Positions 649 to 38,640 of a DNA stretch of 64,000 nt are shown here, piece by piece (within the stretch, counting starts at the first letter, position 1; each line of letters starts with the position of its first letter). The translations under genes and the position numbers were made by a program. Origin of the DNA: a bacterium (GTDB lineage: Bacteria > Armatimonadota > Zipacnadia > Zipacnadales > UBA11051); contig JAJFUB010000018.1 of NCBI GenBank assembly GCA_021372615.1, positions 8,193 to 72,192 on the forward strand, in the 5' to 3' direction. A model generated the notes under the pieces. The model was not told where the DNA came from, made no database searches, and saw nothing but the letters and a program-made list of their open reading frames with translations.

Positions 649-845
649 GGGGCGGGGGTTGGGGATTGGGCATTGGGGATTGGGGACGGCGGAGGCAACG
701 GCTCGGATCTGCCTCACCCCCGGCGGCGGGGCCCGCCGCACACGTGAGACCGCAAGCGGTCTCGGCGGCACCCGCCGCCTGAGTGTTGCCCTACATGCCC
801 GGCCTTCACCAATGCCCAGTACCCAATGCCCAATCCCTAATGCCC
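649..845. repeat. G-tract spacer GGGGTTGGGGATTGGGCATTGGGGATTGGGG (649-690) and an inverted C-tract copy (812-845) flanking an intergenic region that also carries the ATCTGCCTCACCCCCGGC and GGCACCCGCCGCCTGAGTG motifs
   Basis: Four or more G-runs of 3-4 with 1-4-nt loops (canonical G-quadruplex motif) immediately after the DRTGG stop. The reverse-complement arrangement occurs 120 bp downstream. Confidence 0.6.
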
Positions 846-1706
846 AACACCTCCCTAGACCTGCATATCCATTCGGCGCTGTCACCGTGCGCTGACGAGG
901 CGATGCGGCCACCAGCGGTGCTGCTGACAGCGGAGCGGCGGGGGCTGGACGTGGTGGGGATCGTGGACCACTCAACGGGGCGGAACGGGTGGGCGTTTCT
1001 GACGGCGGCGGCGGCGTTTGAGGTGCAGGTGCTGGCGGGCCTGGAGATCGAGAGCAGTGAGGGCGTGCACCTGCTGGCGCTGTTCGATGGTCGCGAGGCG
1101 TTGGAGGATTTCGACGGGCTGGTGGCGCAACATCTGCCCGGCGGGTTGAACCGGCCGGAGGTGCTGGGGCCGCAACTACTGCTAGATGAGTGGGGCGAAG
1201 TGATCGGGGAGGAGCAGCGGCTGCTCATCACGGCGGTGGACCTGGGGCTGGAGCGGCTGGTGGCCATGATCGCCGATCATGGGGGGCTGAGCATCGCTGC
1301 TCACGTGGACCGGAATGCGAACGGGCTCCTGCCGACGCTGGGGTTCGTGCCGCCGAAGCTGCAGGTGGACCTACTGGAAGTGTCGTGGCGCATGACGCCG
1401 GCGGAGGCGCGGCGGCGGTGGCCGGAACTGGAGGCGTGGCCGCTGATCCGTAGCTCGGATGCGCATGTGCTGGAGGAGATCGGGCAGGGGAGCACGGTGG
1501 TGGAGGGGGGAGGCAAAGGCGACGGCTCCTCACCCCTACCCCTCTCCCTCGCGCGCGGTGAGGCTGCGCGCTCCGGAGAGGGGAACGGCAACGGCAAAGG
1601 CAACGGCAGCGACAACGGCTTGCCGGCTGGAAGCCGGCGCTCCTACGGCCTGCGGCAGTGGGTAGGGGAACTGGCGGAGGCGGTGCGGGTGAGCGAGGAT
1701 GCGTGA
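840..1706 (+). CDS. PHP (polymerase/histidinol-phosphatase) domain protein. The C-terminal region carries an in-frame palindromic repeat insertion.
   Basis: N-terminal LDLHIHSALSPCAD, VGIVDHST and later AAHVDRN motifs typical of PHP metal sites. The six-frame ORF starts at 783 but an internal Met at 840 precedes the PHP motif. The ORF runs through repeat element 1528-1650. Confidence 0.6.
   Translation: MPNTSLDLHIHSALSPCADEAMRPPAVLLTAERRGLDVVGIVDHSTGRNGWAFLTAAAAFEVQVLAGLEIESSEGVHLLALFDGREALEDFDGLVAQHLPGGLNRPEVLGPQLLLDEWGEVIGEEQRLLITAVDLGLERLVAMIADHGGLSIAAHVDRNANGLLPTLGFVPPKLQVDLLEVSWRMTPAEARRRWPELEAWPLIRSSDAHVLEEIGQGSTVVEGGGKGDGSSPLPLSLARGEAARSGEGNGNGKGNGSDNGLPAGSRRSYGLRQWVGELAEAVRVSEDA
1528..1650. 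repeat. family-1 palindromic element (CCTCACCCCTACCCCTCTCCCTCGC...GCTCCGGAGAGGGGAACGGCAACGGC) plus family-2 element (GCCGGCTGGAAGCCGGCGCTCCTACGG), lying inside the PHP ORF
   Basis: Near-identical copies at 10560-10650, 11440-11500, 20090-20150, 27860-27900 and 27990-28050. Family-2 copies at 34875-34905, 53600-53650, 30775-30810 and 56672-56700. Confidence 0.8.
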
Positions 1707-2244
1707 GCTGGCCCTGCACCTGTTGGATATCGCGCGGAACTCGATCGAGGCCGGGGCGACGGCGCTGGAGCTCGAGGTGTGTGAGGAGCCGGCGGCCGAT
1801 GAGTTGACATTCCGCGTGCGGGACAATGGGCGGGGGATGGACGCGGAAGCCCTGCGGCGAGCGACCGATCCTTTTTTTTCAACTCGCACGACGAGGAAGC
1901 AGGGATTGGGTCTCTCGTTGTTGAAGGAAGCCTGCGAGCGGAGCGAGGGGGGGCTCGAGGTGGAGTCGGCGCCAGGGGTCGGAACTACGGTGCGCGGGCG
2001 GATGCGCCTGTCGCATTTGGATCGGCCGCCGCTGGGGAAGATGGGGGGCGTGATCCAGGCGCTGGCATGTGAGGGGGAGCGGGTGAGCTTGCGGTACCGG
2101 CACGTGGTGGGGGGCCGGGAGTTCGTGCTGGATACCGAGGCAGTACGCCGGGAGCTAGGCGGGGGGAGGGTGGATGACCCGGCGGTGCTATGCTGGATTG
2201 AGCGGAGTGTAGAGGAGGGACTGACCGCGCTACACTCGGTTTGA
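1699..2244 (+). CDS. histidine kinase-like ATPase (HATPase_c only, no sensor domain), hydrogenase-operon accessory
   Basis: N/G1/G2-box-like motifs (LLDIARNSIEAGA, VRDNGRGMD, GLGLSLLKEACE, GVGTTV). Its start overlaps the PHP stop. Confidence 0.65.
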   Translation: MRELALHLLDIARNSIEAGATALELEVCEEPAADELTFRVRDNGRGMDAEALRRATDPFFSTRTTRKQGLGLSLLKEACERSEGGLEVESAPGVGTTVRGRMRLSHLDRPPLGKMGGVIQALACEGERVSLRYRHVVGGREFVLDTEAVRRELGGGRVDDPAVLCWIERSVEEGLTALHSV

Positions 2245-2362
2245 GACGGCAGGCGGTGGGGTCGGCAACAGGCGTGAAAGTCGTGGATCAGCGACTGTGA
2301 CCGTGCTCGCAGAAGGGTGTATGCGAGCCGGGAGCAGTCGCTACGGTTGGTGGTGTAGCCAC

Positions 2363-2380
2363 TTGTGACTTTTTTCACAA
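2363..2380. promoter_or_regulatory. Rex-type (redox-sensing repressor) operator-like palindrome upstream of the hydrogenase structural genes
   Basis: TTGTGAC-TTTT-TTCACAA has one mismatch to the Rex consensus TTGTGAA-N4-TTCACAA. It also contains TGTGA-N6-TCACA (CRP-like). It lies 47 bp upstream of the ferredoxin/hydC/hydB/hydA block. Confidence 0.5.
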
Positions 2381-2426
2381 TCTCAATCAGTTTGCATCGC
2401 ACCGTATCGGAAGGAGGCAGTACCAG

Positions 2427-2801
2427 GTGAAAACGCGTCAAGACCTGCAGGCTCTGCGTGAGAAAGCCAGAGCGGCCCTGGCTGTCCGAGACAGCCAGGG
2501 CGGGGCACGGGTGGTTATCGCCATGGGCACGTGCGGGATCGGGGCCGGGGCCCGAGAGGTGCTGGGAGCGCTGCTGGACGAGCTGTCCTTGCGGGGCCTG
2601 AGCGAGGTGACGGTGTCCCAGACAGGCTGCAAGGGGCTGTGCGACCAGGAGCCGCTGGTGGAGGTGCACATGCCGGGGATGCCGTCGGTGAGCTACGGGC
2701 GGGTGACGCCGCAGATCATGCGGCGGATCGTGGCCGAGCAGATCGTGAATGGTCAGGTGGTATCGGAGTATGCCATCGCGACCGGAACGGAGGCGGGTTA
2801 G
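2427..2801 (+). CDS. thioredoxin-like [2Fe-2S] ferredoxin (small hydrogenase subunit, HydD-like)
   Basis: 124 aa with a CxxxxC...CxxC pattern (GTCGIGAGA...GCKGLCDQEP) as in the NuoE C-terminal/2Fe-2S Trx-like fold. GTG start with GGAAGGAGG RBS at 2411-2419. Confidence 0.7.
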   Translation: MKTRQDLQALREKARAALAVRDSQGGARVVIAMGTCGIGAGAREVLGALLDELSLRGLSEVTVSQTGCKGLCDQEPLVEVHMPGMPSVSYGRVTPQIMRRIVAEQIVNGQVVSEYAIATGTEAG

Positions 2802-3281
2802 ATGGCTGCGGCCGAGAACATCTGTTGCGAGACCTTCGGCAAGATTGACGAGATCATCGCCCGCAAGGGGAGCACCCCGGACAGCCTGATCGAGGTGCTG
2901 CACGGGGTGCAGGAGGAGCTGGGCTACCTACCCCAGGCGGTGCAGGAGTATGTGGCCGGGAAGCTGGGGCTGGCCGTGGGGGCCGTGGAAGGGGTCATCA
3001 CCTTCTACAGCTTCTTCACGACCGTGCCGCGCGGGCGGCACAGCATCAAGGTCTGCCAGGGCACGGCCTGCTATGTGCGCGGCGGCAAGCGGGTGCTGGA
3101 GGCGGTGGCGAAGCACTGCGGGTGCGGCGTGGGCGAGACCTCCGAGGACATGCGCTACAGCCTGGACGTGGTGCGCTGCGTCGGGGCGTGCGGGCTGTCA
3201 CCGGTGATGACGGTCGGCGAGGACATCTACGAGCGGGTCAAGCCGACGAAGGTCACGGACATTCTGAACAAGTACGAGTGA
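2802..3281 (+). CDS. hydC: NADH:quinone oxidoreductase subunit E-like [2Fe-2S] protein (hydrogenase HydC/gamma)
   Basis: NuoE signature CQGTACYVRGG...CGCGVGETSEDMRYSLDVVRCVGACGLSPVMTV. ATG immediately follows the upstream stop. Confidence 0.85.
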   Translation: MAAAENICCETFGKIDEIIARKGSTPDSLIEVLHGVQEELGYLPQAVQEYVAGKLGLAVGAVEGVITFYSFFTTVPRGRHSIKVCQGTACYVRGGKRVLEAVAKHCGCGVGETSEDMRYSLDVVRCVGACGLSPVMTVGEDIYERVKPTKVTDILNKYE

Positions 3282-3332
3282 GGTGGGGGTTAGGCATTGG
3301 GGATTGGGCTTTGGGGCTTTGGGATCGGCAAT
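3282..3332. repeat. G-tract spacer (GGTGGGGGTTAGGCATTGGGGATTGGGCTTTGGGGCTTTGGG) between hydC and hydB
   Basis: Same motif family as 649-690, directly after a stop codon and before the RBS. Confidence 0.6.
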
Positions 3333-3345
3333 CAGGAGGATACAG

Positions 3346-6300
3346 ATGCCTGCGTTTAGATCACATGTGCTGGTGTGCGCCGGGGCCGGTTGCGTCTCGT
3401 CGGGGTCACAAGCCGTGGCGGACGCGCTGGAACAGGCGATTGTCGAGAGCGGCCTGAGCGGAGAGATCAAGGTCATCCGCACGGGCTGCATGGGATCGTG
3501 CGACCTGGGGCCGGTGGCCGTGGTGTATCCCGAGGGCGTCTTCTATCAGAAGCTGACGCCGGACGACTGCGCGGTGCTCGTCGAGGAGCACCTGCTGAAG
3601 GGGCGACCGGTGGAGCGGCTGATGTACATGCCGACCGAGGAGTACAAGCCGGCGCTAAGCATGGACGAGATCCCCTTCTTCTCGCTACAGCAGAAGGTCG
3701 TGCTGCGCAACTGCGGCGAGATTGACCCGGGGAACATCGAGGAATACATCGCGCGCGACGGCTACGAGGCGCTGGCCAAGGCGCTGACCGAGATGACGCC
3801 GCAGCAGGTCATCGAGGAGGTCAAGCAGTCGGGCCTGCGCGGGCGCGGGGGCGGCGGCTTCCCGACGGGGCTGAAGTGGGAGCTGACCGCCAAGAGCGCA
3901 GAGACGCCCAAGTACGTGGTGTGCAATGCGGACGAGGGCGACCCGGGCGCGTTCATGGACCGGAGCGTGCTGGAGGGCGACCCGCACAGCGTCATCGAGG
4001 CGATGACCATCGCGGGCTACGCCATCGGGGCGAACAAGGGCTATGTGTACGTGCGGGCGGAGTACCCGCTGGCCATCGCGCGGCTGGGCATGGCGCTGGA
4101 ACAGGCGCGGCAGTTGGGCCTGCTGGGGCAGAACGTCTTCGGGTCGGAGCACAGCTTCGACATCGAGATGCGCATGGGCGCCGGGGCGTTCGTGTGCGGC
4201 GAGGAGACGGCGCTGATGGCCTCCATCGAGGGCCGGCGCGGCGAGCCGCGGCCCCGTCCCCCCTTCCCCGCCCAGAAGGGCCTCTACAACAAGCCCACGC
4301 TGCTCAACAACGTGGAGACGTACGCGAACATCGCGCCGATCATCCTCCACGGCGGGCAGTGGCTGGCGAGCATCGGCACCGAGAAGAGCAAGGGGACGAA
4401 GGTGTTCGCGCTGGCCGGGCATGTGAACAACACGGGCCTGGTGGAGGTGCCCATGGGCACGCCGCTGGGCACGATCATCTACGAGATCGGCGGCGGCATC
4501 CGCAACGGGCGGAAGTTCAAGGCGGCGCAGTCGGGCGGGCCGTCGGGCGGGTGCATCCCCAAGGAGCACCTGAACACGCCGGTGGATTACGAGAGCCTCA
4601 AGGAGCTGGGCTCGATCATGGGCTCCGGCGGCCTGATCGTGATGGATGACACGACGTGCATGGTGGACCTGGCGCGGTTCTTCCTGGAGTTCGTGCAGGA
4701 CGAATCGTGCGGCAAGTGCCCGCCGTGCCGCATCGGGACCAAGCGGATGCTGGAGATTCTCGAGCGCATCTGCGCCGGGCAGGGGCGGGAAGGCGACATC
4801 GAGCTGCTCATCGAGCTGGGCGAGCAGATCAAGCTGACCAGCCTGTGCGGCCTGGGGCAGACAGCGCCGAACCCGGTGCTGAGCACCATCCGGTACTTCC
4901 GCGATGAGTATGAGGAGCACATCCGCGACAAGCACTGCCGCGCGGGAGTGTGCACCGAGATGATGAAGGCGCCGTGCGAACACGCCTGCCCGGCCGGGGT
5001 GGATGTGCCGGCGTACGTGGCGCTGATCGCCGAGGGGCGCTTCGACGAGGCCTACGACGTGATCCGCGACACGAACCCCTTCCCGTCGGTGTGCGGGCGG
5101 GTGTGCACGGCGTACTGCGAGCTGCAGTGCCGGCGGGGGCAACTGGATGACCCGGTGGCCATCCGGCTGCTGAAGCGGGCAGCGGCGGACCACCACACGC
5201 GGCCGTGGCAGCCGCCCCTGGAGCCGCAGCGGCACCAGCGGGTGGCCATCGTGGGAGGAGGCCCGGCGGGGCTGACGGCGGCGGCGGACCTGGTGCGCAA
5301 GGGGTACGAGGTGACGGTGTTCGAGAAGGAGGCGCTGCCGGGCGGGATGATGATGCTCGGAATCCCCGAATACCGCCTGCCCCAGGATGTGCTGCAGCAG
5401 GAGATCCAGGAGATCGTGAACCTGGGCGTGGAGCTGAAGACCGGGGTGAGCTTCGGACGGGACATCACGCTGCAGAGCCTATCTGACGACGGATACGGGG
5501 CGATCCTGCTGGCGGTCGGATGCCAGGAGGGCATGCCCCTGGAGGCGCCCGGCAGCGAGGCTGAGGGCGTCATGGACGCAGTCAAGTTCCTGCGGGACGT
5601 GAACCTGCAACGCCCGCCGGCGATCGGCAAGCGGGTGGCGGTGATCGGGGGCGGAGACACGGCCATCGACTCGGCGCGGTCGGCGCTGCGGTTGGGGGCC
5701 GACGAAGTGCACCTGGTGTACCGGCGGACCGAGGAGGAGATGCCGGCCCATGCGGCCGAGATCGCCGAGGCGCGGCATGAGGGAGTGCAGTTCCACTTCC
5801 TGGCAGCGCCCAAGGAGGTCACGGTCGAGGACGGCAAGGTGGTCGGGATGGTGTGCCAGCAGATGCGGCTGGGCGACTTCGACCGCAGTGGCCGGCGGCG
5901 GCCCGAGCCCGTAGAGGGCGCGGACTTCGCGCTGGAGGTGGACACGATCATCCCGGCCATCGGCCAGAAGATCACCACCGACTGCCTGTGCGTGGAGGCG
6001 TCGCGCGGGAAGCTGTGCGCCGACCCGCGGACCCTGGTGACCAACCTGCCGCACGTGTTCGCGGCGGGCGACGCGACCGACGGGCCGATGACCGTCGTGG
6101 ACGCGATCGCGGACGGGCACAAGGCGGCCCGGGCCATCCACAGCTTCCTGTCCGGCGAGCCGCTGCCGGAGCCGAAGCGGCGAGCCAAGACGAAGGTGAT
6201 GGCCGAGGCGATGGCGGCGCTGGAGGAGGCGACGGAGGAGGAGCCCGCGGCGGAGCCGCAGCGTGTGTCGGATGCCTACCGGCGCTCAGGGTTCTGCGAG

Positions 6301-6387
6301 GTGGAGCTGGGGTACTCGATGCCGGTGGCGTGCCGAGAGGCGTCGCGGTGCCTGCACTGCGACTTCGTGATGGTGGAGGAGGAGTAG
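3346..6387 (+). CDS. hydB: NuoF-like flavoprotein subunit of [FeFe] hydrogenase (HydB/beta). It has an N-terminal Trx-like [2Fe-2S] domain and a C-terminal glutamate-synthase-small-subunit (GltD/NfnB/DPD-like) FAD/NAD(P)H domain.
   Basis: The ATG at 3346 has an AGGAGG RBS; the six-frame ORF start at 3283 lies in a G-tract spacer. NuoF motifs are present (GRGGGGFPTGLKWE, CGKCPPCRIG, SLCGLGQTAPNPV). GltD/DPD-like Fe-S helical domain (CEHACPAGVDVPAYV, CGRVCTAYCELQC). Rossmann folds VAIVGGGPAGLTAAADL and VAVIGGGDTAIDSAR. Confidence 0.85.
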   Translation: MPAFRSHVLVCAGAGCVSSGSQAVADALEQAIVESGLSGEIKVIRTGCMGSCDLGPVAVVYPEGVFYQKLTPDDCAVLVEEHLLKGRPVERLMYMPTEEYKPALSMDEIPFFSLQQKVVLRNCGEIDPGNIEEYIARDGYEALAKALTEMTPQQVIEEVKQSGLRGRGGGGFPTGLKWELTAKSAETPKYVVCNADEGDPGAFMDRSVLEGDPHSVIEAMTIAGYAIGANKGYVYVRAEYPLAIARLGMALEQARQLGLLGQNVFGSEHSFDIEMRMGAGAFVCGEETALMASIEGRRGEPRPRPPFPAQKGLYNKPTLLNNVETYANIAPIILHGGQWLASIGTEKSKGTKVFALAGHVNNTGLVEVPMGTPLGTIIYEIGGGIRNGRKFKAAQSGGPSGGCIPKEHLNTPVDYESLKELGSIMGSGGLIVMDDTTCMVDLARFFLEFVQDESCGKCPPCRIGTKRMLEILERICAGQGREGDIELLIELGEQIKLTSLCGLGQTAPNPVLSTIRYFRDEYEEHIRDKHCRAGVCTEMMKAPCEHACPAGVDVPAYVALIAEGRFDEAYDVIRDTNPFPSVCGRVCTAYCELQCRRGQLDDPVAIRLLKRAAADHHTRPWQPPLEPQRHQRVAIVGGGPAGLTAAADLVRKGYEVTVFEKEALPGGMMMLGIPEYRLPQDVLQQEIQEIVNLGVELKTGVSFGRDITLQSLSDDGYGAILLAVGCQEGMPLEAPGSEAEGVMDAVKFLRDVNLQRPPAIGKRVAVIGGGDTAIDSARSALRLGADEVHLVYRRTEEEMPAHAAEIAEARHEGVQFHFLAAPKEVTVEDGKVVGMVCQQMRLGDFDRSGRRRPEPVEGADFALEVDTIIPAIGQKITTDCLCVEASRGKLCADPRTLVTNLPHVFAAGDATDGPMTVVDAIADGHKAARAIHSFLSGEPLPEPKRRAKTKVMAEAMAALEEATEEEPAAEPQRVSDAYRRSGFCEVELGYSMPVACREASRCLHCDFVMVEEE

Positions 6388-6404
6388 GTGGCAAGTGGGG
6401 CGCG

Positions 6405-6495
6405 ACGGTCGCGGTCGGTGACCGACATCTGCCTCACCCCCGGCCCCTCTCCTTCGCGCTCGATACGGCTGAGCGCTCAGGAGAGGGGGGAGCGA
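6405..6495. repeat. family-3 palindrome (GTCGCGGTCGGTGACCGAC) plus a family-1-like hairpin (CCCCTCTCCTTCGCGC...GCGCTCAGGAGAGGGG)
   Basis: Intergenic region between hydB and hydA. Shared motif ATCTGCCTCACCCCCGGC also at 706-723. Confidence 0.7.
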
Positions 6496-6567
6496 CGTGG
6501 AACGGCCCCGCCCACTGCGGCACCTCAGCCGAGCGCCGGCGGGGAGAAAGGCAAAGGAGACTGATCC

Positions 6568-8304: not shown

Positions 8305-8345
8305 AAACCAGGGTTCAGGGGTCAGGGGTCAGGTATCAGAGCAAC
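8305..8345. repeat. G-tract spacer (CAGGGTTCAGGGGTCAGGGGTCAGG) directly after the hydA stop
   Basis: Seen directly. Confidence 0.6.
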
Positions 8346-8508
8346 GGCGAGGATTGGGTGAGGGGGCGCGCTACGCGAGTGGCGCGCCCCCCTTTGTGTG
8401 TGCGGGAGCAGGAAAAGCGGATGAGGATAGCGAAAGGCTGCAATAGCAGTGAACCAGACGACCGGTCCAGTGAGGGGTACGCCCCCCACCATCCAAGGAG
8501 GAGTTGCC

Positions 8509-9180
8509 ATGAGCAGGCGTGGGTTCACACTGATTGAGTTGCTGGTGGTCATAGCTATCATCGCAATCCTGGCGTCCATCCTCTTCCCAGTGTTCGCGCG
8601 GGCGCGGGAGAAGGCGCGGCAGACGGCATGCGTGTCGAACATCAAGCAGCTCGGCATGGCGTGCGCGATGTATACTCAGGACTACGATGAACTGATGCCA
8701 ACGGAGGACTACGACATCAACAGCAACGGGGACGGCAACGAGGTAGGGATTGACGCGAGCTGGCGCGGCGTGATCATGCCGTACTGCAAGAATGCCCAAC
8801 TCTTCCAGTGCCCCAGCTACCGGCCCTCGCCCGGGACGTATGGCCTGTTCGACGGCCGCATCAATGACAAGGGGCAGGTCGGCGGCTACGCCATCAATGA
8901 CGCGCACCAGGACTCGGGCTCGCCAACCCCGCCAGAGGCCCAGGCCCTGGGCTCGGTCGAGGACGCCTCTTCGTGCATCTTCCTGGTAGAGGGCAACGGC
9001 AGCGAGGCCGAGATCATGCCGAACGCGAACGAGCATGTGACCCTCAACATTGCGTCGCTGCGGCGACACAACGACGGCGCCAACTACGCCTTCGTGGATG
9101 GTCACGCCAAGTGGCTGAAGCAGACGGTCGTGTGCAAGGCGTCCGGGGACTGCCTGCTGAGCATGGAGATCGAGCCGTAA
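8509..9180 (+). CDS. prepilin-type N-terminal cleavage/methylation domain protein, DUF1559 (H-X9-DG) family
   Basis: GFTLIELLVVIAIIAILASILFPVFARAREKARQTACVSNIKQLGMA is the classic type IV pilin-like N-terminus. C-terminal HNDGANYAFVDGH is the H-X9-DG motif. RBS AAGGAGGAG. The family is typical of Planctomycetota/PVC genomes. Confidence 0.8.
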   Translation: MSRRGFTLIELLVVIAIIAILASILFPVFARAREKARQTACVSNIKQLGMACAMYTQDYDELMPTEDYDINSNGDGNEVGIDASWRGVIMPYCKNAQLFQCPSYRPSPGTYGLFDGRINDKGQVGGYAINDAHQDSGSPTPPEAQALGSVEDASSCIFLVEGNGSEAEIMPNANEHVTLNIASLRRHNDGANYAFVDGHAKWLKQTVVCKASGDCLLSMEIEP

Positions 9181-9204
9181 GTAGACAGAGAGACAGGACA
9201 CGCA

Positions 9205-9240
9205 GCGCCGGAGGAGAGATCCTCCGGCGCTTTCGTTTCC
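9205..9240 (+). terminator. rho-independent terminator after the DUF1559 gene
   Basis: GCGCCGGAGGAGAGATCCTCCGGCGC hairpin followed by TTTCGTTTCC. Confidence 0.65.
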
Positions 9241-9440
9241 CGAGGGGGCGGGCGGGGCAACGGCGGCCCACCCCCTGGCCCCCTCCCCGCGGGGGAGGGG
9301 GGGAAGGCCAACGGCGACCCACCCCCTGCCCCCTCCGGAGACGCTGCGCGTCTCACGGGGAGGGGGAACGGCAGACGGCACCCGCCGCCTGCCCCCTCCC
9401 CGCAGGAGAGGGGAACGGCAACGGCGGACGGCAGTCAGGG
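9241..9440. repeat. three tandem family-1 hairpin modules (CCACCCCCTGGCCCCCTCCCCGCGGGGGAGGGG / ...CTCCGGAGACGCTGCGCGTCTCACGGGGAGGGGG / ...CCCCCTCCCCGCAGGAGAGGGG), each followed by AACGGC hexamers
   Basis: Seen directly. Related copies throughout the window. Confidence 0.8.
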
Positions 9441-9546
9441 AGGTGGAGGATTCTTTGTGAAACTTCGTTCACAAATGCTAGTTCTGGGGTTTTGCTGTAC
9501 CTGCGATTATGGAGAGACGAATCAACACACACGCCGGGGACCTGTG

Positions 9547-11313
9547 ATGGAGCATGTGGATGAAGCGCGCACCAGAGCTGAACATGGGGGGCGGCACCGG
9601 AGGGTCTATGACGAGTGGCCGGTCGGGGTGCGGAGGTTCACGCAGGAGCGGCAGTACCTGGGGCTCGGCGACGAAGTGTACCCCCGCATCCTTGATACGC
9701 TGAGCCGCATCTTCCACGGGAAGTATGAGGAAGCAGCGCTGTGCTGGGGGATTGGATCGGGGAAGTCGTTCCTGTGCTCGCTGGCGCTGCTGTACATGGT
9801 GTACCGCACGCTGTGTCTGCGGGACCCGCAGCAGTACTACGGCCTGGCCGAGGGGAGCCCGATCCATATCGTGACGGTCGGGCCCACGGCACGCGTGGCC
9901 GAGAAGGCGATCTATGGCCAGATCCGCGGCATGGTGTCGCGGTCGCCGTGGTTCGCCGACAAGTACCCGGCCGACACCCGGACACGCCGCGAACTGCACT
10001 TCCCCAAGCATGTGGAGGTGCTGCCCGGGAACTCCAGCGACCTGTTCCCGCTGGGGCTCAATGTGCTGTGTGCGACCATGGACGAGGCAGCCTTCTTCGT
10101 CGAGACCCAGAGCGGCGGGCAGGAGGCAGCCGAAGAGGTGTACCTCGCACTGCAGCGGCGCATCAAGTCGCGGTTCGGTAGCCGGGGGCTCGTGCTAATC
10201 GCGTCCTCCCCACGGCACGGCGAGGACTTCATCATGCAGAAGCTGGCCGAGGCTGAGACGAACCCGACCGTCTTCGCGTCGCGCAAGGCCACCTGGGAAG
10301 TCAAGCCCGGCTTCAGCGGAGAGACGTGCGTCGAGGGCGGCCTGGAGGTGCCTGTGGAGCTGGCCGGGGAGTTCCGGCGCAACCCGCAGAAAGCGCGCCG
10401 TGACCTGGCCGCCCAGCCCGGAGCGGCGTACCAGCCGTTCTTTGTGGACATGGGGGCGCTGGAGGCGGCGTGCGGTGGGGCGCGGGACGGCGACGGCAAC
10501 GGCGTCCCACCCCCTGCCCCCTCCGCACGGGGGAGGGGGAACGTCAACGAGAACGTCAACGTCAACGGCGACGGCGTCCTCACCCCTACCCCTCTCCCTC
10601 GCCCGCCTTCGCCCTCCGGGCTACGGCAGGCTCCGGAGAGGGGAACGGCTGACGACAACGGCGGCCTACCCCGTCAGCGCTGCGCGCTGACACCCCTCCC
10701 TGGTAGGGAGGGGAAGGGCAACGGCGTGGAGGTGCGGCATCCGTTTGCGGAGGAGGGGAGGCTGGCGGATTGGTTCCGGCCTGATGATGCGGTGCCGCGC
10801 TATGTCCATATAGACCTGGGCCTCAAGAAGGACGCCTGCGGCATGGCCATGGCCAAGGTAGTCAGCGAGGGCGGGCAGCCTGTCGCGGTGGTCGAGCTGA
10901 TGCTGCAACTAACGGCACCGGCGGGCGGTGAAGTGAACCTCGCCACGCCACGGGAAATCGTGCTCGCTCTGCGCCGGCGAGGGTTCCCCATCGGCCAGGT
11001 GAGCTACGACGGATGGCAGAGCGCCGATAGCCTGCAGATCCTGCGCCGACACGGCGTGCGCGCGGTGACCGTGTCCGTGGACCGCGACCTGGGAGCGTAT
11101 GAGACGCTCAAGGAGCTGGCCAATGACGGGCGGCTGCGCATGTACCCCTTCAAGCCGTTCCTGGAGGAGTGCCGTCGGCTCGAACTGATCCAGGGGACCA
11201 AGGTGGATCACCCGGCCCATGGGTCCAAGGATGTGGCCGACGCGGTGGCCGGGGCGGTGAGCGAGGCGGTGAAGGCCTGGGGGGGGACGGATGTGAGGGG
11301 GAGGATCGTGTGA
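9547..11313 (+). CDS. terL: phage terminase large subunit (ATPase plus RNaseH-like nuclease). The inter-domain linker carries an in-frame palindromic repeat insertion.
   Basis: Walker A GIGSGKS, Walker B/catalytic VLCATMDEAAFF, C-terminal nuclease-like domain (YVHIDLGLKKDACGMAMAKV...DGWQSADS...DHPAHGSKDVADAV). The ORF track starts at 9457 and the first ATG is at 9475. An internal Met at 9547 (MEHVDE) is preferred but the start is uncertain. Repeat segment 10486-10725 translates as a low-complexity G/N/P-rich linker. Confidence 0.8.
   Translation: MEHVDEARTRAEHGGRHRRVYDEWPVGVRRFTQERQYLGLGDEVYPRILDTLSRIFHGKYEEAALCWGIGSGKSFLCSLALLYMVYRTLCLRDPQQYYGLAEGSPIHIVTVGPTARVAEKAIYGQIRGMVSRSPWFADKYPADTRTRRELHFPKHVEVLPGNSSDLFPLGLNVLCATMDEAAFFVETQSGGQEAAEEVYLALQRRIKSRFGSRGLVLIASSPRHGEDFIMQKLAEAETNPTVFASRKATWEVKPGFSGETCVEGGLEVPVELAGEFRRNPQKARRDLAAQPGAAYQPFFVDMGALEAACGGARDGDGNGVPPPAPSARGRGNVNENVNVNGDGVLTPTPLPRPPSPSGLRQAPERGTADDNGGLPRQRCALTPLPGREGKGNGVEVRHPFAEEGRLADWFRPDDAVPRYVHIDLGLKKDACGMAMAKVVSEGGQPVAVVELMLQLTAPAGGEVNLATPREIVLALRRRGFPIGQVSYDGWQSADSLQILRRHGVRAVTVSVDRDLGAYETLKELANDGRLRMYPFKPFLEECRRLELIQGTKVDHPAHGSKDVADAVAGAVSEAVKAWGGTDVRGRIV
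10486..10725. repeat. family-1 composite element inserted inside terL
   Basis: CCACCCCCTGCCCCCTCCGCACGGGGGAGGGGG. (AACGTC/AACGGC) hexamers. CCTCACCCCTACCCCTCTCCCTCGCCCGCCTTCGCCCTCCGGGCTACGGCAGGCTCCGGAGAGGGG. CACCCCTCCCTGGTAGGGAGGGG. Confidence 0.8.
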
Positions 11314-11319
11314 AGGAGG

Positions 11320-11570
11320 AGGCCGACCCTCACCCCCGGCCGCTCTCCCAGAGGGAGAGGGGAGCAGACGGCGGGGGTTGAAACCCCCGCCTGACGGGGA
11401 GGCGTCCCTCCGGGACGCCGGGACGGCAACGGCAACGGCGTCCTCACCCCTACCCCTCTCCCTCGGCCCGCTGCGCGGGCCTCCGGAGAGGGGAACGGCA
11501 ACGACGGCCTACCCCAGCCCTGCGGGCCACCCCTCCCTGAAGGGAGGGGGGAACGGCAACGACGGTGACG
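11320..11570. repeat. family-1 composite element between terL and portal (modules A, B and C)
   Basis: GGGGGTTGAAACCCCCGCCTGACGGGGAGGCGTCCCTCCGGGACGCC (module A, two short hairpins). AACGGC hexamers. CCTCACCCCTACCCCTCTCCCTCGGCCCGCTGCGCGGGCCTCCGGAGAGGGG. CCACCCCTCCCTGAAGGGAGGGGGG. Confidence 0.8.
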
Positions 11571-11719
11571 ACGGCGGTGTACGGGCGGCTCGGAAGCGAG
11601 GCGCTCTGTTCGGTTCTGGTGGGACGATGTGATGCTCTGACGGGGTCAGCCCCCCAGAGGACCGGATGCAGCCGGTCTTCCGGGGACGGACCCCACCCCG
11701 TACAGGTGGAGGCGAGGCA

Positions 11720-13090: not shown

Positions 13091-13300
13091 GGGGCGGGGG
13101 GCAAGGGCGGGGGTTGAAACCCCCGCCTGACGGGGAAGCGTCCCTCCGGGACGCGGACGGAGGACGGCAACGGCGGCCCACCCCCTGCCCCCTCCCCACA
13201 GGGGAGGGGGAACGGCAACGGCAACGGCAGCAACGACGACCTACCCCCTGCCCCCTCCCTACAGGGAGGGGGGACGGCAACGACAACGGCGAACGGCGGT
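13091..13300. repeat. family-1 composite element (modules A, B and C twice) between portal and protease
   Basis: GGGGGTTGAAACCCCCGCCTGACGGGGAAGCGTCCCTCCGGGACGC. CCACCCCCTGCCCCCTCCCCACAGGGGAGGGGG. CTACCCCCTGCCCCCTCCCTACAGGGAGGGGGG. Confidence 0.8.
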
Positions 13301-13324
13301 GGCGCGCAGGCGAGCTGAGAGACA

Positions 13325-15159: not shown

Positions 15160-15335
15160 GGGCGGGAGAGGGAGAGGGCGGGGGTTGGCCCCCCCGGGAA
15201 GCGGGGCGGCAACGGCGGCCCACCCCCTGGCCCCCTCCGGAGACGCTGCGCGTCTCGCAGGGAGGGGGAACGGCAACGGCGACGACAAGGGCGGGGCCTG
15301 CGGCTCGTTCTGGGCCGCAGGCCTCTGCATGAGTG
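15160..15335. repeat. family-1 element plus an extra hairpin (GGCCTGCGGCTCGTTCTGGGCCGCAGGCC) after the capsid gene
   Basis: CCACCCCCTGGCCCCCTCCGGAGACGCTGCGCGTCTCGCAGGGAGGGGG. Confidence 0.75.
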
Positions 15336-20800: not shown

Positions 20801-20829
20801 ATGGCACACGATAGCATGCGGAGGGACGT

Positions 20830-22562: not shown

Positions 22563-22597
22563 CGGTCACCCCCGGCTCTGCCTGGTGGCGGGGAGGG

Positions 22598-22705
22598 TCG
22601 GCGGTTGAAGCCCCCGCCTGTGGGAAGCGTCCCTCCGGGACGCGGGACGGCAACGGCGTCCTACCCCCTGCCCCCTCCCTGAAGGGAGGGGGAACGGCAA
22701 CGGCA
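22598..22705. repeat. family-1 composite element (modules A, B and C)
   Basis: GGCGGTTGAAGCCCCCGCCTGTGGGAAGCGTCCCTCCGGGACGC. CTACCCCCTGCCCCCTCCCTGAAGGGAGGGGG. Confidence 0.8.
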
Positions 22706-27640: not shown

Positions 27641-28115
27641 GGGCCCTCACCCCCTGGCCCCCTCTCCCAGGGGGAGAGGGGGGAAAGGCGAACGGCGGGA
27701 GCGGGATGCCATGGCACAGCGTGCAGAGGACTCTTGACGCGACTCCGCCCGTCTTCGCCCTGTGGCTACTACGGCGGAGCGCGGGGGTTGAAACCCCCGC
27801 CTGTCGGAAGCGTCCCTCCGGGACGCGGGACGGCAACGGCAACGACAACGGCGTCCTCACCCCTACCCCTCTCCCTCGCCCGCCTTCGCCCTGCGGGCTA
27901 CGGCGGCGGAGCGCGGGGGTTGAGACCCCCGCCTGTCGGAAGCGTCCCTCCGGGACGCGGGACGACAACGGCAACGACAACGGCGTCCTCACCCCTACCC
28001 CTCTCCCTCGCCCGCCTTCGCCCTGCGGGCTACGGCGGGCTCCGGAGAGGGGAACGGCAACGACGGCCTACCCCGGCCCTGCGGGCCACCCCTCCCTGAA
28101 GGGAGGGGAACGGCA
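27641..28115. repeat. largest family-1 repeat island, containing a near-perfect tandem duplication of an about 127-bp unit (27769-27900 and 27896-28030)
   Basis: The unit is CTACGGCGGAGCGCGGGGGTTGA[A/G]ACCCCCGCCTGTCGGAAGCGTCCCTCCGGGACGCGGGACG[G/A]CAACGGCAACGACAACGGCGTCCTCACCCCTACCCCTCTCCCTCGCCCGCCTTCGCCCTGCGGG. Only 2 mismatches between copies. Confidence 0.8.
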
Positions 28116-28157
28116 GGCGGTGACGATGGACTGCGGTGACGAGGATTGGAGGGGCTT

Positions 28158-30449: not shown

Positions 30450-30828
30450 GAAGGCAGTGCAGAACGCTGAACGATGAATGATGAATGGGGTGGTGGGTGA
30501 TGGAGCTGGTGCAGATCGTGCGGCGGGTGGTGGACCGGCAGGTGCGGCCGGCGCTGGGCGGCGGGGCGACGACCGCCAGTGGGCGCGCTGCGGGCGCGGC
30601 CAAGGGGGGAGGGAACCGCTTCCTGATGCGGGTGGCGGCAGACGGGGCGGTGCTGAGGCGAGCGGTGTATGGGCGAGGGCGGTACGGGGTGGAGCGGTAC
30701 CTGTCGGGGTAGCGGCAGGTGAACGGCGGAGGCAACGGCGGGCGGGCTGGGAAGCCCGCGGTCCCAGTAACGACATGCGGCGTGCCGGCGGGAAGCCGGC
30801 GTGCCTACGGCACACGGCGAGGTGAGCC

Positions 30829-32296: not shown

Positions 32297-32590
32297 GTGG
32301 CTGAGATGGTGAAGGAGTGGTTGGTGCAGGTGGTCGTGCCGGGGCTGGGCGCGGCGCTGCTGGTGGCGGTGATCTCGTTCGTGCGGCAATACGCGGCGCA
32401 ACTGAAGGACGAGAAGATGCGCCAGGCGCTGCTGGCGCTGGTGCAGGCCGCCGAACAGCTCTATGGCGCAGGCAAGGGCGAGGCGAAGCGGCGGTTCGTG
32501 CGCGAGAAGATGAAGCAGAAGGGCCTGGAGGACCTGGGGCGTGAGGAGCTGGAGGCGGCGGTGTACAAGCTGAAGGCGGAAGGCAGTTAG
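32297..32590 (+). CDS. holin-like protein (N-terminal TM helix plus charged C-terminal helix)
   Basis: WLVQVVVPGLGAALLVAVISFV TM segment, then a Lys/Glu-rich tail. Immediately upstream of the endolysin. Confidence 0.45.
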   Translation: MAEMVKEWLVQVVVPGLGAALLVAVISFVRQYAAQLKDEKMRQALLALVQAAEQLYGAGKGEAKRRFVREKMKQKGLEDLGREELEAAVYKLKAEGS

Positions 32591-32625
32591 GAGTTAGGGG
32601 TTAGGAGTTGGGAGTGAAGGCGGGG
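32588..32625. repeat. G-tract spacer (TTAGGAGTTAGGGGTTAGGAGTTGGGAGTG) after the holin-like gene
   Basis: Seen directly. Confidence 0.5.
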
Positions 32626-32668
32626 CCGCTGCCGAGAGGTGGCGGCCCCGTATTGTTGGTTCCGGAGG

Positions 32669-33568
32669 ATGAGGATGATACGGCTTGAGGGGCTGTCGCT
32701 GGTGGTCGAGGCGTTCCTGCGCGACCAGGGCTTCCGCGTGGACAGCGAGGCGGCGGGGTCGGCGCAGATCGTCGGGATTCGGGGAGCGCGGATCGTGCGC
32801 GCGGCAGACGGGGAGGTCCAGGGCCTCAGCATCCTTCCGAGCCCGACGGCCATCACCGATCGCTATGATGACGCCATCTTCGTGTGTGGCCGCAAGGCCG
32901 GCGGCGAGCGCTACGCAGATGTGTTCCAGGCATCGCTGCAACCCGGCCGGGCGAGCTTCGCCCTGGCGCACTACCGGAACCGGGGCTGTCCCATCGTGCA
33001 GCCGGGGCAGTACCAGTATGGCAGAGGCCTGCACAACCCGCCCAGCGGTCAGTCCTACCCGGCGCTGCGGCAGCGGGCCGCCATCGTCGTCGTGCGCGAC
33101 TACGACCAGGATGCGCTGCAGGAGGCGACCGACCGGTGGGACTACCCGGCCAGCGGGCTGAACATCCACGCCGGCGGCGCGTCCGAGAGCGTGGGGCGCT
33201 GGTCAGAGGGCTGCCAGGTGATCCGGGGGGGACGCGGTGCCGGGAGTCCCTGGAGCCGGTTCCGCCGCCTCGTCTACGAGGTCGCGGCACCCCAGAGCGT
33301 GTTCCACTATGCGCTGGTGGACGGCGAGTTCTTCGGCAAGTGGTTTGACGCGGGGGGCGCATCGCGGAGCGATGCGGGCACGCGGAGAGCGGTGCGGCGG
33401 CTGTGGTTCGGGTCGCACGGGGAGCGTGTGGCGGAGCTGCAGGAGCGGCTGGTGAAGCTCGGGCACTACCATGCCGGCGGCGTGGACGGGGAGTTCGGCG
33501 TGAAGACCCACATGGCGGTACGGCGGTGGCAGGCGGCGGAGGGGAAGGCAGTGACGGGAGTCGTTTGA
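32669..33568 (+). CDS. endolysin: cell-wall hydrolase with a C-terminal peptidoglycan-binding (PG_binding_1) domain
   Basis: C-terminal RRLWFGSHGERVAELQERLVKLGHYHAGGVDGEFGVKTHMAVRRWQAAEGKAVTGVV matches the PG_binding_1 pattern. The N-terminal catalytic fold is not assigned. GGAGG RBS. Confidence 0.6.
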   Translation: MRMIRLEGLSLVVEAFLRDQGFRVDSEAAGSAQIVGIRGARIVRAADGEVQGLSILPSPTAITDRYDDAIFVCGRKAGGERYADVFQASLQPGRASFALAHYRNRGCPIVQPGQYQYGRGLHNPPSGQSYPALRQRAAIVVVRDYDQDALQEATDRWDYPASGLNIHAGGASESVGRWSEGCQVIRGGRGAGSPWSRFRRLVYEVAAPQSVFHYALVDGEFFGKWFDAGGASRSDAGTRRAVRRLWFGSHGERVAELQERLVKLGHYHAGGVDGEFGVKTHMAVRRWQAAEGKAVTGVV

Positions 33569-33690
33569 GGGTCAAGGGTCGAGGGTCTGGGGTGAAGGGT
33601 AGCGGCAACGGCAACGACAACGGCGCAGCCCCACCGTGAGGGACTGCGCCGTTACCCTAGACCCTATACCCCAGACCCTTCACCCTTTCC
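33569..33690. terminator. G-tract/C-tract imperfect palindrome between the convergent endolysin and oxidoreductase genes (bidirectional terminator candidate)
   Basis: GGGTCAAGGGTCGAGGGTCTGGGGTGAAGGGTAG ... CTACCCTAGACCCTATACCCCAGACCCTTCACCC. Confidence 0.4.
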
Positions 33691-33691
33691 C

Positions 33692-34735
33692 CTACTCCAC
33701 CTTCACCGCGCAGCCGGTGCGGGCCGATTCATAGCAGGCGTCGATGACCTTGTGGCTCCAGATGCCGTCTTCGCCCGGGATCGGCACGGGCGTATCGTTG
33801 GCGATGGCATCGCAGAAGGCCTGGACGTGGGCCTGGTACATGTTCGTCACTGCCGGCTCGATGATCTGCTCGCCGGTCTCCTCGCGCTTCTGGCCCGCGT
33901 CGTACCCCCTGTCGCCCTGCTCCACCACGGCGTGCAACTGCCCCGCTGAGCTCTGGCCGATGGTGCCGAAGGCGTAGACGCTACCCTTGGAGCCGTAGAC
34001 TTCCAGGGCGTTGCGCGCCGCCGCGTCCGGGACGTTGAAGAGCGCGTCCACCACCCCGATGGCCCCGTTCTCGAACTGCAGCATCGCCACCGCCGTGTCC
34101 TCGGTCGCGTAGTCCTGGACGAGGTTCCCGGTGTAGCACTTCACCTCGCGCACCCGGCCGAAGAACTGCTCCAGCAGGTCCACGCAGTGGTTCCCCATGT
34201 CAATGAAGCTGCCGCCGCCGCCCAGCTCGGGGTCCTGACGGAAGGCGCCGGGGATGGGCGGATACCAGCAGGTCAGCTCGGCGCGGCCCATGACCAGCGT
34301 GCCCAGGTCGCCGGCATCCACCATCTGCTTGAGCGCCAGGTGGCAGGCGTGGAAGCGCATCATGAAGTTGATGCCCAGCTTCACGCCGCGGGAAGCGCAC
34401 TCCTCGACGATCTCCTCACACTGCGGCAGCGTCAGCGCCAAGGGCTTCTCGCACAGTACGTGCTTGCCGGCCTCGGCAGCGGCCATGACCTGGCTATAGT
34501 GCAGATGGGTCGGGGTGGCGATGTAGACCGCTTGCACGTTGGGGTCGTTGAGCAGGTCGTACTCGCTGGTGTAGACCGCCTTGACGCCGTGCCTCTCGGC
34601 GACCGCCTTGACCCGATCTTCGGCGACATCCTGGACGGCGACGAGGGTGGCGTCGGGGCAGGGCATGATGCCCTCGGGTATGGTGCGGCGATCGGCGATG
34701 CCACCGGCTCCGATGACTCCCCAGTTGATGGACAT
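33692..34735 (-). CDS. Gfo/Idh/MocA family NAD(P)-dependent oxidoreductase
   Basis: N-terminal GVIGAGGIADRRTIP Rossmann motif and the EKPLALTLPQCEEI signature of the family. Confidence 0.85.
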   Translation of the reverse strand: MSINWGVIGAGGIADRRTIPEGIMPCPDATLVAVQDVAEDRVKAVAERHGVKAVYTSEYDLLNDPNVQAVYIATPTHLHYSQVMAAAEAGKHVLCEKPLALTLPQCEEIVEECASRGVKLGINFMMRFHACHLALKQMVDAGDLGTLVMGRAELTCWYPPIPGAFRQDPELGGGGSFIDMGNHCVDLLEQFFGRVREVKCYTGNLVQDYATEDTAVAMLQFENGAIGVVDALFNVPDAAARNALEVYGSKGSVYAFGTIGQSSAGQLHAVVEQGDRGYDAGQKREETGEQIIEPAVTNMYQAHVQAFCDAIANDTPVPIPGEDGIWSHKVIDACYESARTGCAVKVE

Positions 34736-37632: not shown

Positions 37633-37798
37633 GGATTGCTGGTTGTGCGGTCGGAAGCGGGAAGCGATGGCGCTGTTCGCTGCGGGCACGACGTGGGAGC
37701 GGTCACCGACCGCGACCGGCCCGGACGGCTGTCGCGGTGGGTGACCGCTCCCACAGCACACATTGCGGCAAGATGATCGCTGGAGCGTGGAGATAGAG

Positions 37799-38593
37799 AT
37801 GTCTGAACCGAAACTAGCAGGGAAGTTCGCACTCGTCACCGGTGGCGCGCAGGGCCTGGGGGCGGCGCTGTCGGAGCGTTTGGCCAAAGAGGGCGCGAAT
37901 GTGGCCGTCCTCGACCTCAACGGCGAGGGCGCGCAGGCAGTAGCCACGAAGCTGGCAGCCGACTACGGCGTCAAGACGCTCGGGGTCGGCTGCGACATCA
38001 CTGACGAGGCCAGCGTGGCGGCGGCGTTCGAGCAAGTCAGGAGTGCGTTCGGCCGCCTCGACCTGTGCATCAGCAATGCCGGGATCCTCATCTCGGGGCC
38101 GATCGCGGACTTCGATGTCGCCAAGTGGCACAAGGTCGTCGAGGTCAACCTCGTCGGCTACATGATCATTGCCAAGTACACGGCGCAGATCATGATCCCG
38201 CAGGGCTCTGGCGTCATCGTGCAGATCAACAGCAAGTCGGGCAAGAAGGGCAGCAACAAGAACAGCGCATACGCCGCCAGCAAGTTCGGCGGCATCGGCC
38301 TGACCCAGTCGCTGGCCCTGGAACTGGCCGAGTATGGCATCCGCGTGAACGCCCTGTGCCCGGGCAACCTGCTGGACTCGCCGCTGTGGCAGGACAGCCT
38401 GTACGAGCAGTACGCCAAGCGCTGGGGCCTCACCGTCGAGGAAGTGCGCCAGAAGTACGTGGATCAGGTGCCGCTCAGGCGCGGGTGTGTGTACGAGGAT
38501 GTCGCCAACGCGATGGTCTTCCTGTGCCTGGACGACAGCTCGTACATCACCGGCCAGGCGCTGAACGTGGACGGCGGGCAGACGATGCATTGA
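37799..38593 (+). CDS. short-chain dehydrogenase/reductase (SrlD/sorbitol-6-phosphate dehydrogenase-like)
   Basis: TGGAQGLGAALSERL cofactor motif, NAG and YAASKFGGIGLTQSLALEL (YxxxK) active site. Followed by a rho-independent terminator. Confidence 0.85.
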   Translation: MSEPKLAGKFALVTGGAQGLGAALSERLAKEGANVAVLDLNGEGAQAVATKLAADYGVKTLGVGCDITDEASVAAAFEQVRSAFGRLDLCISNAGILISGPIADFDVAKWHKVVEVNLVGYMIIAKYTAQIMIPQGSGVIVQINSKSGKKGSNKNSAYAASKFGGIGLTQSLALELAEYGIRVNALCPGNLLDSPLWQDSLYEQYAKRWGLTVEEVRQKYVDQVPLRRGCVYEDVANAMVFLCLDDSSYITGQALNVDGGQTMH

Positions 38594-38640
38594 CGGCAGG
38601 GGTCAGGTGACGGGGAACAGGGGACAGGAACGGCAACGAC
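38594..38640. repeat. G-tract spacer (GGCAGGGGTCAGGTGACGGGGAACAGGGGACAGG) after the SDR stop, preceding the terminator hairpin
   Basis: Seen directly. Confidence 0.55.

Follow-up and report, generated by a model that had tools for sequence, protein, structure and literature searches.

The window examined here, a 64-kb stretch of contig JAJFUB010000018.1 from an uncultured lineage of the phylum Armatimonadota, carries short tandem arrays of 7-nt units that sit at the edges of open reading frames (ORFs), nearly always directly after a stop codon. A first-pass annotation of the window had taken these arrays to be G-quadruplex (G4) elements involved in transcription termination, protection of 3' ends or translational coupling. 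The explanation that we favor, with confidence slightly above even, is that the arrays are heptanucleotide simple sequence repeats (SSRs) which turn over by slippage or conversion and act as a tolerated or mildly useful spacer that does not pair with itself, that inverted pairs of arrays provide the stem of a long hairpin, and that G4 potential is incidental. Folding into G4s is chemically plausible for five to seven of the arrays according to the predictions described below, but it is probably incidental. Quadruplex folding is probably not the selected property since close relatives carry repeats without G4 potential at the same position after the stop codon. From this we infer that the arrays lack a G4-specific function, and the proposed G4-based roles find no support in the comparison with relatives.

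The comparison involves eight arrays from four related contig sets, five of the arrays having been checked against an adjacent long ORF with high G+C at third codon positions. None of the eight contains a canonical G4 motif (G4Hunter scores of 0.2 to 0.9), as opposed to six of 11 arrays in the window. HydA assigns the window to uncultured Armatimonadota. Among genome matches to this protein, a contig of a metagenome-assembled genome (L002) is the best at 92% amino-acid identity, and the next five (L003 to L007) are at 80-84%. L002 keeps, at its orthologous hydA end, the coding sequence, the terminator hairpin plus T-run and an AACGGC element, but in place of the window's (CAGGGGT)n array it has (AGTGGTTG)n, a repeat that contains no G3 tract. 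The hydB end has a (GTGGTTG)n array in L002 versus a 180-nt insert resembling repetitive extragenic palindromic (REP) sequences, and no array, in the window. No heptamer array occurs in the hydC-hydB spacer of L002 or of L003 to L007, the latter having plain spacers of similar length, and coupling at hydC-hydB therefore does not require the array. A prophage in the IMG/VR contig IMGVR_UViG_3300037692_000675 (loci L081-L083) is ~75% identical in nucleotide sequence to the prophage in the window and has the same repeat system with different array units, namely (CAGAGGT)n positioned 3 and 9 nt past ORFs of 582 and 974 codons, as well as (TTGAGTGG)n and (CGGGAACG)n. In L313, four copies of GAGTGGTT lie 4 nt past a 347-codon ORF and 5' of a terminator, and in L326/L327 a (CAGTAGA)n array follows TGA CGG (a long ORF in that frame was not confirmed) and a (CAGGTGA)n array is also present. 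Intergenic content is very different between genomes whose flanking genes are ~85% identical. Arrays of the window and of the relatives have in common that they are C-poor, their sense strand being 0-20% C and 31-65% G. As read from these sequences, what the lineage shares is a tandem array of 7-8-nt, C-poor, G/T/A-rich units beside an ORF; G3 tracts are not shared. Because relatives keep such an array after losing the G tracts, period, composition and placement would be what is maintained, or generated by mutation, rather than quadruplex formation.

The pattern of arrays after stop codons is real, non-random and statistically robust. All 11 arrays in the window start 0-12 nt from an ORF, which lies on the 5' side of the G-rich strand, and the intergenic gaps that hold them are 28-261 nt long. 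Ten arrays are on the sense strand and begin 0-12 nt past a stop codon, and one (806-855) overlaps a start codon and has its G-rich strand antisense to the gene. At the sites listed first, where 110 nt were read after each stop, arrays start 0-5 nt past the stop codon, and this includes the minus-strand oxidoreductase gene. Tandem Repeats Finder (TRF) called period-7 repeats at 654-686, 3284-3325, 8309-8339, 21517-21549, 32585-32615 and 33568-33600, with inverted copies at 809-851 and 33654-33685, and copy numbers at these eight loci are 3.6-6. TRF and the reading of stop contexts thus bear out the first-pass annotation on the presence of G-rich runs 0-5 nt past the stops of the genes that it listed. 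The pattern (GGGN4)4GGG with no more than one mismatch matches 14 times at six sites, versus 0.36 matches expected from dinucleotide-preserving shuffles. The annotation had also proposed that G4Hunter signals should be enriched after stops, and within the window they are: a sense-strand G4Hunter window of at least 1.5 occurs in the interval +1 to +50 at 13 of 55 stops versus 21 of 984 coding windows (odds ratio 14, p=2e-9), and in the interval +1 to +30 at 12 of 55 stops versus 23 of 1657 coding windows (p=2e-10). G-rich windows are thus ~14-20 times commoner just past stops than within genes. The hydA loci of other taxa (1.37 Mb) contain one comparable array.

Canonical G4 motifs, (G3+N1-7)x4, are found in the arrays at 649, 806-855 (minus strand), 3282, 21514, 33569 and 33654 (minus strand) and are absent from those at 8309, 32585, 38597, 30462 and 55566 (minus strand). 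G4Hunter scores are 1.3-2.5 for the six canonical arrays and 1.2-2.5 for the nine arrays at the sites listed first. The claim that each site has four or more G3-4 tracts consequently holds for five of the eight sites listed and fails at 8309, 32585 and 38597. Likewise, the G-rich strand had been described as always the coding strand, which is correct for the stop-adjacent arrays, whereas the coding strand carries the C-rich side of the copy at 806-855, and the stop at 27640 has a C-tract motif starting 4 nt past it. In the window as a whole there are 12 C-tract motifs versus 15 G-tract motifs, and the C-tract motifs are mostly arms of REP-like hairpins. When G4s are allowed in ViennaRNA, the predicted fold is altered only at 3282 and 21514, with a G4 predicted at both, and the folds of the paired sites are unchanged.

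A modular order is usual at the gene ends in question: the stop codon is followed by the heptamer array, then by (RACGGC)n hexamers, and then by a terminator or a REP-like hairpin. GC-rich hairpins with a T-rich tail follow the hydA (8362-8391), holin (32620-32651) and SDR (38644-38666) genes. The first two sit 29-57 nt past the stops and were scored as terminator-like on the plus strand in a terminator scan, and the T-rich tail of the third was read from the sequence by eye. The arrays themselves lack the combination of a GC hairpin and a T-run that characterizes intrinsic terminators, and ordinary intrinsic terminators lie 3' of them. RNA folding predicts that unpaired arrays are single-stranded and upstream of the hairpins. 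Arrays face each other at two places (654-684 with 815-845, and 33568-33606 with 33648-33686), forming inverted pairs with arms of 31-39 nt. The first-pass annotation had noticed both pairs and had suggested a long hairpin as an alternative there. Both pairs hold up, and the hairpin is supported by folding: 646-860 has a predicted energy of -130 kcal/mol, and 33560-33700 has -79 kcal/mol on one strand and -86 kcal/mol on the other, with no change if G4s are allowed. In the mechanism that we propose, arrays would arise and be replaced quickly by slippage or conversion, and would be transcribed as a stop-proximal 3' untranslated region (UTR) or as an intercistronic spacer, as the layout suggests. 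An array would then be a tolerated spacer, free of Watson-Crick hairpins of its own, between the stop codon and the hairpins, and facing arrays would be the stem of a very stable long hairpin that is probably a bidirectional terminator or an insulator between genes.

Several observations sit poorly with arrays that are merely tolerated products of slippage. Neutral slippage does not explain why arrays start exactly at the ORF. The same unit families are found at unlinked loci in the window, GGGSATT at 649, 806 and 3282, GGGTCNA at 21514, 33569 and 33654, and CAGGGGT at 8309 and 38597, and the units TTGAGTGG, CAGRGGT and CGGGAACG recur across genomes. Local slippage does not predict such recurrence, which hints at sequence-level selection, conversion or mobility. 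A protective role for the spacer also fared badly in silico: when the array was swapped for 200 random coding segments, the pairing probability of the terminator was 0.95-0.99, compared with 0.95-0.998 for the native sequence, and an insulating spacer that protects terminator folding was rejected as an explanation. The preference for four units among related repeats in other bacteria (PMC4692102) fits selection for G4 formation. Orientation is a further difficulty. Up to 42.6 kb there are 37 stops, nearly all belonging to plus-strand genes, and these account for all 12 of the G-rich stop contexts; farther on come 18 stops, 17 belonging to minus-strand genes, none with such a context. Since nearly all informative genes are on the plus strand, coding-strand orientation and leading-strand orientation are inseparable here. 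Finally, the sample comprises the ~64-kb window and ~70 kb of sequence from the lineage.

It is unlikely that the arrays work as G4s, either in 3' UTR RNA or in non-template DNA, by making RNA polymerase pause before the terminator, by blocking 3'-to-5' exonucleases or by modulating re-initiation at hydB. The sense-strand enrichment past stops is strong, six of the 11 arrays are canonical with G4Hunter scores of 1.3-2.5, ViennaRNA predicts G4s at 3282 and 21514, and similar heptamer oligonucleotides from Xanthomonas and Nostoc fold into G4s in vitro and show the four-unit preference (PMC4692102); these are the grounds for taking a G4 function seriously. They are countered by the relatives, in which none of eight arrays is G4-capable and the hydA site of L002 lost its G tracts and kept its terminator, and by the window itself, in which three of the eight listed sites have fewer than four G3 tracts, the Watson-Crick hairpin is predicted to be far more stable at the paired sites, the start of the PHP-domain gene has a C-rich copy on the coding strand and past the stop at 27640 comes a C-tract motif. 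Bacterial RNA G4s are, moreover, reported to be depleted and to be deleterious if inserted artificially (Guo and Bartel 2016, cited after PMC8191793). A still less probable possibility is that the arrays belong, as modules, to mosaic elements that move or recombine, similar to bacterial interspersed mosaic elements (BIMEs) built from REP sequences or to the miniature inverted-repeat transposable elements known as MITEs, in which they would be terminal inverted repeats or linkers spread by a transposase or by gene conversion. The elements at 649-855 and 33569-33692 are MITE-sized, and each has an internal hairpin flanked by terminal arrays of 31-39 nt in inverted orientation, but a second full-length copy of either was not found in the window or the fetched loci, which are a small sample, and only sub-modules of 20-27 nt recur. 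The arrays are embedded in a dense REP-like hairpin and hexamer system of single orientation (e.g. 7:0, 9:0 and 15:0), unit families are common to unlinked loci and to different genomes, and intergenic content differs greatly where flanking genes are ~85% identical, all of which mobility would explain. Nevertheless, the arms of the two elements differ in sequence, there is no evident target-site duplication, arrays are for the most part unpaired, and no association with insertion sequences or transposable elements was seen for the Xanthomonas and Nostoc repeats (Rehm et al. 2015; PMC4692102). No transposase gene was seen nearby, though no search was aimed at one. Imperfect palindromes of ~20-40 nt, which characterize REP sequences and BIMEs, describe the neighboring hairpin families, as separate modules, and not the arrays, which are direct repeats.

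A different line of thought is that the lineage uses a stop-adjacent repeat pad of 7-8-nt units whose function is set by period and composition, for example as an antisense loading site for Rho or as a platform for a 3'-UTR protein, and we regard this general idea as doubtful. If it were true, the G4-capable arrays here, and perhaps the Xanthomonas and Nostoc repeats too, would be one variety of pad. Rho prefers RNA that is C-rich and G-poor. The version in which the antisense strand is the relevant one, with unstructured, C-rich and G-poor tracts having a pyrimidine-C motif every 7-8 nt that serve as Rho-loading pads against antisense or read-in transcription at gene 3' edges, appears improbable. 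It would account for the sense-strand composition (0-20% C and 31-65% G, hence C-rich and G-poor complements), for the conservation of composition and of the 7-8-nt period across relatives in which G tracts are not conserved, and for the placement at ORF boundaries. Yet the argument is inferential throughout, an array measures 30-45 nt, which is below the length of a typical Rho loading site, the C-rich copy at 806-855 occupies the sense strand just ahead of a start codon, and arrays are absent after the 18 stops that lie past 42.6 kb, 17 of which belong to minus-strand genes. Base composition can be set aside almost completely. The window is 68% GC, its GC skew is +0.1 to +0.25 across 1-34 kb, and generic G4 motifs occur within genes too, so that chance runs of G might be expected from the excess of G over C on the sense strand; 14 matches versus 0.36 in dinucleotide shuffles and post-stop enrichment relative to coding windows of the same strand (p ~1e-9) effectively refute this, and a clear 7-nt tandem periodicity also argues against it. 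Two narrower proposals were rejected. A 7-nt period could place stop codons in all three frames, and stops are present in AGTTAGG, GAAYGAT, AGTGGTTG, CAGTAGA and CAGGTGA and absent from GGGGATT, CAGGGGT and GAGGGTC; the share of units with stops, about half, is roughly that expected from base composition by a rough estimate rather than by a tool. Readings of the arrays as Shine-Dalgarno-like sequences or as RNase E sites each fit only some of the unit families. Slippage-prone SSRs with incidental G4 potential remain the explanation that we favor, and the comparison with relatives directs future experiments to swaps of array units and away from G4 ligands.

Heptamers of the short tandemly repeated repetitive (STRR) sequences of cyanobacteria, of which the GGGGAYT repeats of Nostoc are the classic case, were reportedly described by Mazel and coworkers in 1990. 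The window arrays resemble STRRs and other long SSRs in being heptanucleotide tandem repeats, which large, high-GC or cyanobacterial genomes contain in excess between their genes; they differ in their units, and the placement at stop codons and the downstream hexamer-and-hairpin modules are apparently specific to the lineage. Long SSRs have units of 5-11 nt, and polymerase slippage was proposed as their origin (Mrazek et al. 2007, cited after PMC4679880). The closest counterparts are the GGGAATC repeats of Xanthomonas and the GGGGA(C/T)T repeats of Nostoc described by Rehm et al. (2015, PLoS One; PMC4692102), which are intergenic, have a modal size of four units, lie a mean of 28 nt from the 5'-neighboring ORF, form 70-75 convergent inverted pairs per genome and vary among closely related species. 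Oligonucleotides of these repeats form G4s by circular dichroism in vitro and transcription of the repeats was demonstrated in Xanthomonas, but a function was not identified (PMC4692102), and the later literature that we searched does not resolve the function of G-rich heptamer SSRs. Judged by sequence, the window arrays are members of this class, every testable feature of which is found here. They consist of 7-nt units with a G3-4 tract, typically four to six of them, in intergenic DNA; they are placed by the 5'-neighboring ORF, either past its stop on the coding strand or, at 806-855, before a start on the non-coding strand; they frequently occur as convergent inverted pairs able to form stem-loops (two pairs here); and units and lengths vary extensively among close relatives, as seen at the hydA and hydB ends in L002. 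They depart from the Xanthomonas and Nostoc repeats in phylum, in the location of some arrays within a prophage, and in the presence of several unit families in one 64-kb window (GGGSATT, GGGTCNA, CAGGGGT and AGTTAGG) instead of one dominant unit. Other departures are the adjacent (RACGGC)n hexamers and REP-like hairpins and the stop-adjacent units of close relatives, which are not G4-capable. The phylum and the multiple unit families are what is new, and the repeat class itself has already been described, so no new category is involved. A class on record for Xanthomonas and Nostoc since 2015, and for cyanobacteria, under the name STRRs, since 1990, is thereby extended to an uncultured Armatimonadota lineage and to one prophage.

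Similarities to other repeats are more limited. The TAACTGA heptamers of marine Beggiatoaceae, proposed to be binding sites for a translational regulator (MacGregor 2015; PMC4679880), also form short arrays (2-6 copies) a few nucleotides from ORF boundaries and are scattered across phyla, but unlike the window arrays they are A/T-rich, are upstream of start codons and have a single conserved unit. Enterobacterial REP sequences and BIMEs share with the window a modular intergenic mosaic of hairpins and linkers 3' of genes, the content of which varies among strains; their units are palindromic, whereas the heptamer arrays are direct repeats. Unrelated peat-metagenome contigs (L214, L252, L264, L316, L323 and L279) have (GGGAAYA)n or (GGGATCA)n arrays a few nucleotides past TGA or TAG triplets, and the class of G-rich heptamer SSRs seems, from such sequences, to be widespread beyond the phyla in which it was described earlier. 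A general rule of placement after stops in unrelated contigs was rejected. Among 96 heptamer arrays with G3 tracts in IMG/VR, a long ORF ends upstream of nine in the G orientation and 14 in the C orientation, compared with 4.8% of random positions, and this set is mixed, including telomere-like repeats and homopolymer artefacts, and the test is crude, so that it is uninformative as to strand.

Individually, the arrays of the window show the following arrangement. Pfam supports the genes that flank them, and with these the gene names of the first-pass annotation: DRTGG, PHP, a NuoE-like HydC, HydB (1013 amino acids), HydA, holin, peptidoglycan (PG)-binding lysin, a minus-strand GFO/IDH/MocA oxidoreductase and SDR. 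A GGGGATT/GGGCATT array with six G3+ tracts (649-686, plus strand) abuts the TGA that ends the DRTGG gene and is the left arm of the first inverted pair. The interior of this element (687-805, plus strand) consists of GACGGC, GGAGGC and AACGGC hexamers followed by nested GC-rich hairpins (722-738/763-779), and a 23-nt sub-module of it is found again at 60732-60754. The inverted copy that pairs with 649-686 (806-855) has its G-rich side on the minus strand, leaving the coding strand C-rich, and it overlaps the ATG of the PHP-domain gene (840). A plus-strand array of the same unit family as that at 649 fills the hydC-hydB spacer (3282-3325) and ends 8 nt 5' of AGGAGG, the hydB ribosome-binding site (ATG at 3346), just where the annotation had placed it. 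The (CAGGGKT)n array at 8309-8343 (plus strand) has only three G3+ tracts; it begins 4 nt past the hydA TAG and is followed by AACGGC and the intrinsic terminator at 8362-8391. A (GAGGGKC)n array (21514-21549, plus strand) is directly 3' of the TGA of the prophage ORF 20830-21513 and is followed by (RACGGC)n hexamers at 21550-21588. The holin stop codon TAG (32588-32590) is inside the first unit of the (AGTTAGG)n array at 32585-32619 (plus strand), which is not a canonical G4 motif and which leads to the terminator-like hairpin at 32620-32651. Directly 3' of the lysin TGA, a (GGGTCNA)n array (33569-33600, plus strand) forms the left arm of the second inverted pair and leads to hexamers (33603-33624) and, at the center, a hairpin (33619-33653); the right arm (33654-33691, minus strand) has units of the same family and is directly past the stop (33692-33694) of the convergent GFO/IDH/MocA gene. 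An irregular (CAGGGGW)n array with three G4 tracts (38597-38631, plus strand) begins 3 nt past the SDR TGA and is followed by the hexamer-like GGCAACGACAA and by the hairpin at 38644-38666 with its TTTCGTTTG tail. Two further arrays complete the set. A (GAAYGAT)n array that is not G4-capable (30462-30485, plus strand) is placed as the other arrays are, 12 nt past the stop at 30449, and 2.7 copies of CGGGAACGGTGAGG (55566-55610, minus strand), G-rich on the sense strand of the gene, lie just past the stop of the minus-strand gene 55611-56915. Two G-rich stop-adjacent runs on the plus strand are of other kinds: GGGGCGGGGGGCAAGGGCGGGGG at 13091-13113, which is not a heptamer array, continues into the 5' arm of a REP-like hairpin, and a (GGGAGA)n-type run at 15160-15184 leads into a GC hairpin.

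REP-like hairpin families crowd the intergenic DNA in which the arrays are found. They include GGCGGGGGTTGAAACCCCCGCC, GCGTCCCTCCGGGACGC, CCCCCTGCCCCCTCCCC..GGGGAGGGGG and CCTCACCCCTACCCCTCTCCC..GGAGAGGGG, are joined by (RACGGC)n hexamers, and are located at 6390-6560, 9180-9460, 11310-11660, 13090-13320, 15160-15300, 20017-20830, 22563-22700 and 27641-28145. Copies of the REP-like and hexamer elements are on the plus strand only (7:0, 9:0, 15:0, 9:0, 6:0 and 6:0). A hexamer-and-hairpin module at 48739-48790 is 3' of a minus-strand gene and yet has the plus-strand orientation of all the others, a single case which hints that the orientation of modules tracks the DNA (replication) strand and not the gene. 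A composite REP-and-hexamer module of 132 bp is tandemly duplicated at 27746-28038 (2.2 copies, 95% identical). Within the ORF of the prophage terminase large subunit (9457-11313), ~250 nt of hexamers and REP-like hairpins at 10480-10740 remain in frame without stops and encode a low-complexity insert (..GDGNGVPPPAPSARGRGNVNENVNVNGDG..). In the block of minus-strand genes at 42600-64000, the intergenic regions are ordinary: they contain other hairpins, and arrays and REP modules are nearly absent. The hairpin core of the lineage, GGGGGTTGAAACCCCCGCC, was tried as a metagenome probe and was rejected, the matches being mostly to an unrelated repeat family, with only L295, L304 and L313 belonging to the lineage. 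This 19-nt sequence is also the core of a very abundant, different repeat (..GGCTAAAGCCC..TTATGC-core-TCCCTCCG..) in peat-type contigs of 55-64% GC (loci L204-L323), where it occurs in tandem units of ~65-170 nt in L205, L251 and L318.

The repeats are not an assembly artefact, since 2135-3654 is matched at 100% identity by an independent Logan assembly (L001), in which the array at 3282-3345 is reproduced exactly. GC skew falls from ~0.2 to ~0.03 near 34 kb. PHROGs matches delimit a prophage at 9.4-33.6 kb with terminase, portal, protease, capsid (phrog_1623) and minor tail genes, and the region (9457-33568) also holds the holin and PG-binding lysin genes. A megablast search of 13.0-33.7 kb against GenBank phages gave zero matches, as did an Rfam scan of the window, and two protein-based scans and one composite DNA pattern found no related prophages among viral contigs. 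HydB (3346-6387) is a 1013-residue fusion of a NuoF-like flavin mononucleotide/4Fe-4S module with a C-terminal GltD-like module (Fer4_20 and pyridine-nucleotide-disulphide oxidoreductase), and this architecture is kept in Armatimonadota relatives. At 53670-53826, across the 5' end of the minus-strand ORF 53657-55387, lies a tandem repeat (CAGGCGCTGTGG-like) that is imperfect and shows periods of 12, 27 and 39 nt.

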